Virus record (IMG/VR): IMGVR_UViG_2724678985_000019
DNA: 7,168 nucleotides
Origin: a virus
Taxonomy: Duplodnaviria > Heunggongvirae > Uroviricota > Caudoviricetes
Strand: one strand, 5' to 3'
The position numbers were made by a program, and so were the translations under genes. Position 1 is the first letter of the stretch; every line of letters begins with the position of its first letter. The notes below the pieces were generated by a model. That model was given only the letters and a program-made list of their open reading frames with translations. It was not told where the DNA came from and did no database searches. This document shows, in pieces, positions 2,795 through 3,689 of the stretch.

Positions 2795-3154
2795 ATGAGA
2801 ATGACCAGTCGCAAAAAAGAGATACTTAGCTACTTTGAACCGGATAACCTCGAATGGGTGACTGGTGAGATTGGTGCGCCGCCGTTCGATGTGTCGGGTG
2901 TGGCCTACCTGCTTCATGGCATGGTGTCGTTCGATAAGCGTCACCAGCTCGAATCAACCCGGCGCACACTGGAAAGCATGGTTGCTGGTGGACTGCTTGA
3001 GCGGGTGACAGTGTATGAATCGCGCCAGATACGGCGCGGCGGTGATACTAACGCAACGGTCGTGCGCTACGGTTTACCCGGTCAGTGCGCTGTTATGCGC
3101 GATACTGGCGGCGCTGACAACGCAATATCAGGTGAATACATGCGGGTCAGTTAA
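2795..3154 (+). CDS. Hypothetical protein, 119 aa, family not recognised (possibly a small DNA-binding protein)
   Basis: Complete ORF with AAGGAA Shine-Dalgarno ~10 nt upstream of the ATG. GC-rich coding sequence with protein-like composition. Segment AYLLHGMVSFDKRHQLESTRRTLESMVAGGLLERV resembles a helix-turn-helix/winged-helix stretch by eye only. Its 3' end overlaps the convergent downstream gene by 8 bp. Confidence 0.6.
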   Translation: MRMTSRKKEILSYFEPDNLEWVTGEIGAPPFDVSGVAYLLHGMVSFDKRHQLESTRRTLESMVAGGLLERVTVYESRQIRRGGDTNATVVRYGLPGQCAVMRDTGGADNAISGEYMRVS

Positions 3155-3689
3155 TAGCCTGCAATCTGTCGTTGATGCGGCTCAGGTCGTAAACCCGGCG
3201 TTCAATATCCAGCATCAGGAAATTGTGGATCTCGGCCTGCTCAGGATTATCAGACTCTCTGGCCTGTAATAGCAATTCATTGTAACCATGCAAGCCGCCT
3301 GAGTTTTCCGCCGGGGTGGTGCCTTTCCCACGCAGGCAGCTAATGGGCTGATTACTCGTATCGTGTGTTTGCTTCTCCAGCACAATGACGCAATCCCACC
3401 AGTCGCCAAAGTCATACGTGTAAACCAGCTTGTCACCCTCATTCTGGAGCGCCGCCCATAGTGGCGTGATTGCCGCGTTACCCATGCTTTCATCCTCACC
3501 CCATACGCGATACTCGCTACCTGGATCACCTTTACGCCCTTTCTCGAACATATACAGGTGTTCGTCATTCCAGCCAAAAGCTAACTGGATCACGGCATGA
3601 AGTTTACTAAAGGGGATTTGCTCTGGAACCAGCACACGCCGCCATATAGGTGGTTTGCTGTCTCGGATGGTTATCTTTAGCTGGTACAT
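3147..3689 (-). CDS. PRiA4_ORF3-family protein (plasmid pRiA4b ORF-3-like domain, PF07929-like)
   Basis: Complete 180-aa ORF. N-terminal pattern ITIRDSKPPIWRRVLVPEQIPFSKLHAVIQLAFGW...HLYMF and the signature YTYDFGDWWD match my recollection of the PRiA4_ORF3 domain; unverified by HMM. Confidence 0.8.
   Translation of the reverse strand: MYQLKITIRDSKPPIWRRVLVPEQIPFSKLHAVIQLAFGWNDEHLYMFEKGRKGDPGSEYRVWGEDESMGNAAITPLWAALQNEGDKLVYTYDFGDWWDCVIVLEKQTHDTSNQPISCLRGKGTTPAENSGGLHGYNELLLQARESDNPEQAEIHNFLMLDIERRVYDLSRINDRLQAIN

Follow-up and report, generated by a model that had tools for sequence, protein, structure and literature searches.

The convergent genes p119 and PRiA4, which lie near the middle of the window (the whole 7,168-nt stretch of viral DNA analysed here), are probably the last two genes of an EcCIMP1-like phage-inducible chromosomal island (PICI), a phage satellite, rather than a dedicated two-gene module. 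The uncharacterised PRiA4 is cargo in the known 3′ accessory/defence slot of PICIs and is separable from p119. We propose that two independent, self-promoted cassettes would converge at the integrase-distal (3′) end of such an island. The first would be p119, encoding a small winged-helix DNA-binding protein that binds its own palindrome and autoregulates; the second would be PRiA4, cargo driven by a promoter of its own and seated in the variable slot that p119 and s61 delimit. The 8-bp overlap of the two genes would then be the legacy of a compact insertion that happened long ago and was passed on by linkage, with the 3′ third of p119 co-varying with the cargo.

Table 1. Positions of the features in the window and the basis on which each was assigned.
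Feature	Position	Strand	Basis or remark
EcCIMP1-collinear segment	2577..6393	.	99.4% to the integrase-distal 3.8 kb; blastn against NGF1 locus L033
att core repeat TCCTATTATC (PICI end)	2584..2593	-	exact match in the window
Palindrome, near-perfect, 32 bp (CTTATTGTATGATAG-TG-CTATCCCACAATAAG)	2750..2781	+	15-nt arms, 87% complementary; repeat search
p119 (WP_001350215.1), 119 aa, ATG start	2795..3154	+	predicted winged helix; last gene of the backbone, conserved in this family of PICIs
Tail-to-tail overlap of stop-codon regions, 8 bp (TCAGTTAA)	3147..3154	.	ORF list and sequence
PRiA4 (WP_000284450.1), 180 aa, ATG start	3147..3689	-	PRiA4_ORF3, MM3350-like; identical to the EcCIMP1 copy
Promoter-like TTTACA-N18-TATCGT, upstream of PRiA4	3723..3752	-	consensus scan; putative
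s61, 61-aa backbone protein	3810..3995	-	other flank of the cargo slot; PHROG 7271
PerC/ANR-family regulator (EcCIMP1_025)	4293..4574	-	Pfam PerC, 3.7e-30; same accession in MP1
AlpA-family protein (EcCIMP1 alpA_1, EcCIMP1_023)	5249..5434	+	Pfam Phage_AlpA, 1.9e-13

The initial annotation had described two complete ORFs with an 8-bp convergent overlap in a mobile, satellite-related neighbourhood, and both descriptions hold, the latter through collinearity with EcCIMP1. Both genes are annotated in RefSeq, p119 as 'hypothetical protein' and PRiA4 as 'plasmid pRiA4b ORF-3 family protein'. Given their many homologues, and pairwise dN/dS values against homologues from other species of 0.06–0.19 for p119 and 0.07–0.12 for PRiA4, both ORFs are genuine genes under purifying selection and not chance reading frames.

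EcCIMP1 is a PICI of 19,963 bp in the mouse commensal E. coli MP1 (Pick, Stadel & Raivio, ISME J 2025; PMC11773190). It occupies positions 3,565,708–3,585,670 of the MP1 genome, where it has inserted at tRNA-Thr, with proA and yagU on either side. A copy of the direct repeat TCCTATTATC borders each end, and experiments showed that the element is excised and transduced only with the helper phage Kapi1 (PMC11773190). The MP1 genome annotation places p119 at 3,565,919–3,566,278 and PRiA4 at 3,566,271–3,566,813, both within the published boundaries of the element, and neither gene is discussed or assayed in the EcCIMP1 paper (PMC11773190). In NGF1, which is near-identical to MP1, two core repeats are located 19,963 bp apart, exactly the published length of EcCIMP1, and the genes met on going inward from the integrase-distal repeat are p119, PRiA4, s61, PerC (EcCIMP1_025) and AlpA_1 (EcCIMP1_023). 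The PRiA4 and PerC accessions are common to MP1 and to O111:H- 11128, and the copies in 11128 match those of the window at 100% identity; there the region lies within a degraded island adjoining tRNA-Thr (thrW). The 1.3-kb p119/PRiA4 region was found in 384 of 5,426 complete E. coli genomes and is chromosomal in every case.

The att core match at the left end of the collinear segment is not significant as a lone 10-mer, which turned up in 72 of 200 shuffles, and it is meaningful because of the collinearity with EcCIMP1. The position of this core means that the R-M pair at 541–2249 lies outside the PICI and that p119 is the first gene inside it. The initial annotation had set p119 and PRiA4 between an R-M-like pair and a satellite cluster; it named the flanking genes correctly, but the two genes turn out to be the terminal part of the satellite itself. 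The R-M pair is composed of a 5mC methyltransferase (541–1611, + strand) and an HNH endonuclease (1590–2249, − strand), which are convergent and overlap by 22 bp. It is absent from all 27 related loci, and its PADLOC scores are to DruM/MTase_II and REase_II.

The PICI segment of the window is a 3.8-kb remnant devoid of integrase, canonical alpA and primase, so that the combination of int, AlpA and primase-replicase in an att-flanked island of 10–20 kb, by which a PICI is recognised, is not found in the window itself; the full int/alpA/primase set is present in the collinear NGF1 and MP1 elements. Since collinearity ends at 6393 and the DNA beyond is not that of EcCIMP1, the PICI of the window is truncated and presumably immobile. 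The sequence past this point starts with an ORF for a 139-aa membrane protein (6399–6818) foreign to EcCIMP1, followed by a match to the ykgL-proximal chromosome (6828–7020) and by the end of IS1203 (7018–7168).

Within the collinear segment, s72 (4806–5024, 72 aa) is a paralogue of s61 with 62% identity, both belonging to PHROG 7271 and both being conserved backbone genes. The PerC/ANR regulator EcCIMP1_025 represses LEE1 in C. rodentium (PMC11773190), and alpA_1 is described in the same report as dispensable for PICI excision and as supporting excision of the helper phage (PMC11773190). Between s72 and PerC, a sequence of ~110 bp (4604–4712) has an inverted copy (84%) at 30571–30679 of the NGF1 locus, just past the 3′ end of the primase gene in the complete PICI. 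This repeat could be regulatory or replication-related; an Rfam search of the window gave no RNA family.

Gene-cluster maps were compared for 27 loci from species-representative genomes, fetched via the alignment of p119 homologues (loci are numbered L006 and so on below). On one side of p119 there is a conserved backbone consisting of s61, a 203-aa protein, PerC, SSB, a Zn-ribbon/Toprim/DUF927 primase-helicase and an integrase, and on the other side there is unrelated DNA. The slot between p119 and s61, the latter being present in 18 related loci, holds PRiA4 in some lineages and quite different genes in others: PRiA4 together with a SocA_Panacea TA pair in L006, a membrane protein with a CapP/RmrA-like M78 peptidase in L011, a YafO toxin in L017, a complete ShosTA defence system (ShosT 4e-49, ShosA 2e-100) in L026, and integrases or TerS-like genes in other loci. 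In L009 and L043 the slot is empty and s61 adjoins p119 directly. The region between the p119 and s61 flanks therefore has the variable contents of a hotspot, a known defence system in sibling islands being among them, and the immune systems of PICIs are located at either the 5′ or the 3′ end of the island (PMC11364771). A search of the literature returned no prior description of a p119-type winged-helix flank gene as a hotspot marker. Two further observations concern the loci themselves. The assembly of L026 is labelled Chryseobacterium sp., whereas its flanks are the enterobacterial ligB-yicG, and a frameshifted p119 abuts ShosTA there (6001–8000). L041 and L042 share the same s61-PRiA4-p119 end and carry different primases (DUF927 versus D5_N/DUF5906), a difference that illustrates the modular shuffling of the PICI backbone.

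The initial annotation favoured a coupled module of the toxin/immunity or R-M kind, for which co-occurrence of the two genes ought to be conserved. Such co-occurrence is largely lacking. PRiA4 adjoins p119 in 8 of the 27 species-level loci, and each gene occurs without the other. Among E. coli genomes, p119-like DNA is present in 493 and PRiA4 in 375, and some 112 of them, including O157:H7, harbour a diverged p119 in a PICI-like island from which PRiA4 is absent. In the p119 tree, PRiA4 appears in two clades, each of which also has PRiA4-less members (L009, L010, L043). Conversely, PRiA4 of the same subfamily (73–77% identity) is found with no adjacent p119 in L029, L043 and L044. In the Serratia locus L029 it adjoins DUF2280 and a Phd/Fic pair, and a profile search of this locus for a hidden diverged p119 was negative; in L043 it lies 4 kb from p119. 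In L044 (1091–1730), an intact PRiA4 is followed by a C-terminal remnant of p119 (aa 89–119, 55% identity) and then by a Phd/Fic TA pair, which suggests that p119 was cut short by cargo insertion with PRiA4 left intact. No conserved neighbour or partner was found for distant PRiA4 homologues. Since p119 and PRiA4 are each found without the other, they are separable in both directions and their association is lineage-specific; it is real only in two lineages and can be explained by physical linkage. In L030, PRiA4 has only 61% identity and a dN/dS of 0.52 (p119, 95%), for which diversifying selection was considered and rejected: the locus is on a metagenomic contig in which many housekeeping genes, gmk and spoT among them, are split, and this fragmentation makes frameshifts in the assembly or decay of a symbiont's genome the likelier cause.

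What then is the origin of the 8-bp overlap? Its geometry is identical in every locus with adjacent genes, including the clade with 71% (p119) and 74% (PRiA4) identity to the window, and the synonymous divergence between the window and L013/L032 is about 1.7 for both genes. Where p119 has other neighbours, these begin at distances of 0–218 bp. The N-terminal 75 residues of p119 are 75–97% conserved across all lineages, whereas its C-terminal third, made up of the wing loop and the tail, is a mosaic with 29–82% conservation; p119 of L011, for instance, is 91% identical to that of the window in its N-terminal part and 53% in its C-terminal part. The last residues vary with the cargo, the protein ending in RVS beside PRiA4 and in RVG without it. 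The simplest reading of these alignments is that the 3′ part of p119 would be physically linked to the adjacent cargo and exchanged together with it, and that the overlap would be an inherited feature of one old compact insertion and not a sign of functional coupling. As a counterpoint, neither the overlap nor the short wing of p119 has been lost over this deep divergence, and a co-adapted pair would show the same pattern.

Such a pair would be a dedicated functional unit of p119 and PRiA4 in the short-wing lineages, in which the two act as regulator or antidote and effector, or are coupled through convergent antisense transcription. The invariant overlap speaks for it, as do two other features: slot PRiA4 is found only with the 119-aa short-wing variants of p119, and a sequence scan found no terminator between the two genes, so that convergent transcription or antisense effects may occur between them. 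Besides the absence of PRiA4 from most lineages with p119, and from members of both PRiA4-bearing clades, it has to be reconciled with PRiA4 genes that remain intact and under purifying selection with no p119 (L029) or with a remnant of it (L044), with synonymous divergences that are discordant between the two genes in several pairs, with a convergent layout that is atypical for TA systems, and with a conserved, putative promoter region for each gene. The promoter-like element of PRiA4 is kept in both the PICI-slot and the Serratia-type contexts, where the upstream gene differs, which points to PRiA4 being an autonomous cassette. We consider a dedicated unit quite improbable and retain the reading of two linked, independent cassettes.

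No sequence family could be given for p119, in agreement with the initial annotation: searches of Pfam, NCBIfam, PADLOC and PHROGs gave no match, and a profile search of the PDB gave nothing significant. Its structure can be placed, nevertheless. The fold modelled by AF2 is a winged helix, with a helix-turn-helix core followed by a β-hairpin wing. The model from a deeper alignment that included distant representatives reached a pLDDT of 75, and that from 24 sequences of 70–90% identity reached 50 and was discarded. Weak, scattered and sub-threshold Pfam matches of p119 relatives are to winged-helix families only. The p119 family comprises 542 clusters, almost exclusively of Enterobacterales origin and without exception annotated as 'hypothetical', and extends to 91 representatives at E ≤ 0.001 among 1.84 billion proteins. 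One distant relative, P0297 (200 aa), has a C-terminal T5orf172/MUG113 (GIY-YIG-related) domain, a fusion indicating that the p119 domain can serve as a predicted DNA-targeting module. The single phage homologue of p119 has an anti-repressor as its neighbour and belongs to an early regulatory region. The weak matches, the fusion and the phage homologue would all suit DNA binding by p119.

The palindrome upstream of p119 encloses a −10-like TATGAT (2757–2762) and abuts the RBS AAGGAA (2779–2784); no conserved −35 element was found for the p119 promoter. It is kept in all 25 loci examined, and conservation begins abruptly at its left edge. The p119 gene and the palindrome thus form a unit of ~410 bp that borders the PICI backbone in genomes across Enterobacterales, irrespective of the integrase and att site present. 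From this conservation, the palindrome appears to be the putative operator/promoter of the p119 gene, and its presence at the gene's own promoter suggests that p119 is a sequence-specific DNA-binding protein; most likely, we infer, p119 binds the palindrome and autoregulates. An RNA hairpin is disfavoured, because the arms vary independently with no compensatory changes, which favours a protein operator. A role of p119 as a PICI-wide repressor is likewise disfavoured, the palindrome and even its half-sites being found nowhere else in the 20-kb element.

This uniqueness also bears on the idea that p119 regulates or insulates the hotspot in a generic way, controlling whatever cargo adjoins it or keeping transcription of the AlpA-driven operon and that of the cargo or chromosome from reading into each other. 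p119 always flanks the slot, is the sole backbone gene that faces the long operon, and has variable DNA on both sides of its cassette, all of which would suit such a function. Against it, the palindrome occurs only upstream of p119 in the whole PICI; the cargo genes carry unrelated upstream regions, among which no shared operator was found. This function of p119 is unlikely in our judgement.

A further possibility to be weighed is that p119 binds the att site of the PICI or is its recombination directionality factor (RDF). Small winged-helix proteins are common among RDFs, and p119, some 200 bp away from the att core, would be divergent from int once the element is circular. Yet the p119 cassette is kept beside unrelated flanks, att sites and integrases (thrW, the yicG side and the hpt side) and does not vary in step with a cognate integrase or att site, as an excisionase would be expected to; an RDF role is therefore unlikely. 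Moreover, conservation stops at the palindrome, and the published control of excision is assigned to alpA and int (PMC11773190). Altogether, p119 has hardly any chance of being the RDF, and an autoregulating DNA-binding protein is the reading we prefer.

The PRiA4_ORF3 assignment made in the initial annotation is secure, the Pfam match (PF07929) having an E-value of 1.1e-42 and a score of 146.2 bits against a cut-off of 26.6, with residues 2–170 of PRiA4 aligned to positions 3–167 of the 173-position profile. The only solved relative is 2I1S (PDB), a 'hypothetical protein' from structural genomics, with a sequence match of E 3e-21 over residues 1–167. PRiA4 has the residues that are invariant in the family as judged from an alignment of 35 diverse members, namely W16, R17 and R18 (in WRRV), H31, W40, H44, YxYDFGDxW and GGxxGY. 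The motif GGxxGY is commonly preceded by CPPED in PF07929, and by TPAEN in the enterobacterial subfamily.

Members of PF07929 are passengers of IS1096-like, p-MULT4 and IS66 elements. In Mycobacterium phage LouisV14 (L047), an IS1096-like insertion has a 'TnpR' gene that converges on TnpA, the two lying tail-to-tail at a distance of 7 bp, and in Pseudomonas phage Marin (L046) a PRiA4 homologue directly follows an IS66 transposase; that phage-borne homologues are IS passengers is consistent with Guérillot et al. 2014. Is PRiA4 a housekeeping accessory of mobile elements, for example a recombination or transposition helper, rather than a conflict or defence gene? The old IS1096 label 'TnpR', the relatives riding on these three kinds of element and the plasmid ORF from which the family took its name would all agree with this. 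The PRiA4 domain, however, has no recognisable recombinase or DNA-binding motif, and Pfam itself is said to remark that the resolvase label is unsupported. In PICIs, PRiA4 occupies the optional slot and not the backbone, and many of its homologues are solitary chromosomal genes. We regard the accessory role as unlikely.

Judged from its position in the slot, PRiA4 most plausibly acts in phage/MGE conflict. Neither p119 nor PRiA4 matched a model of PADLOC 2.0 at E ≤ 0.1, no functional study of PRiA4_ORF3 was found in the literature, and many distant homologues stand alone among housekeeping genes. Given the lack of a defence-model match and the number of homologues among housekeeping genes, a conflict role of PRiA4 is a positional inference only, and interference with phages of any kind is a tentative possibility. 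Superinfection immunity has been reported for EcCIMP1, and the authors' searches with PADLOC and DefenseFinder gave no system that would account for it (PMC11773190). PRiA4 may be put forward as a candidate for this unexplained immunity, and a doubtful one.

What first appeared as an orphan 'module' can thus be filed under a published and functional phage satellite, as the accessory region at its end. PF07929, a family that has gone for decades with no assigned function, sits where sibling PICIs carry ShosTA or TA genes, in an element whose anti-phage phenotype is unexplained. If a role in phage interference is true, PF07929, a widespread domain that occurs on PICIs, IS elements, plasmids and phages, would be a new single-gene family of phage interference, and the p119 cassette would be a usable genomic marker of the PICI defence hotspot. 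Being sharply bounded, the cassette of p119 and palindrome could anchor the mining of cargo in enterobacterial PICIs, and the apparent recombination of the p119 3′ third with the cargo hints at a route of cargo swapping. These results leave current views standing and add to what is known of satellites as vehicles for accessory and defence genes.

Comparison with known systems places both genes more closely. Type II TA and R-M-style pairs are likewise two small adjacent genes of mobile elements, one of them encoding a predicted DNA-binding protein. In contrast to type II TA systems, p119 and PRiA4 are convergent and form no co-directional bicistronic operon, have separate putative promoters and no toxin-like domain, and lack obligate co-occurrence (8 of 27 loci with both). 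p119 recalls the small winged-helix regulators, such as ArsR/MarR/Fur-type domains, DsrD and Z-alpha, but stands outside their Pfam/NCBIfam sequence families. It has no evident dimerisation helices or metal sites, different from MarR-type and metal-binding regulators, has a disordered 20-residue tail, and belongs to a family confined to Enterobacterales satellites. The IS1096 'TnpR' and other IS passengers of PF07929 are borne by mobile elements like PRiA4, but PRiA4 sits in a PICI slot.

The closest counterpart is EcCIMP1 itself, which is of the same element type and sequence, with identical PRiA4 and PerC accessions and the att core repeat, and from which the window copy differs in being a remnant beside an R-M pair and IS copies. 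The 3′-end immune region of PICIs (Fillol-Salom et al. 2022, as cited in PMC11364771) is likewise a variable slot with conserved flanks at the integrase-distal end, and the defence hotspots of P4 and P2 (Rousset et al. 2022, PMC9122126) offer an analogy to it. As in the known accessory/immune region of PICIs, the slot of sibling islands carries the validated ShosTA and TA/Abi-like genes; PRiA4 differs from the known immune cargo of PICIs in that it matches no PADLOC model.
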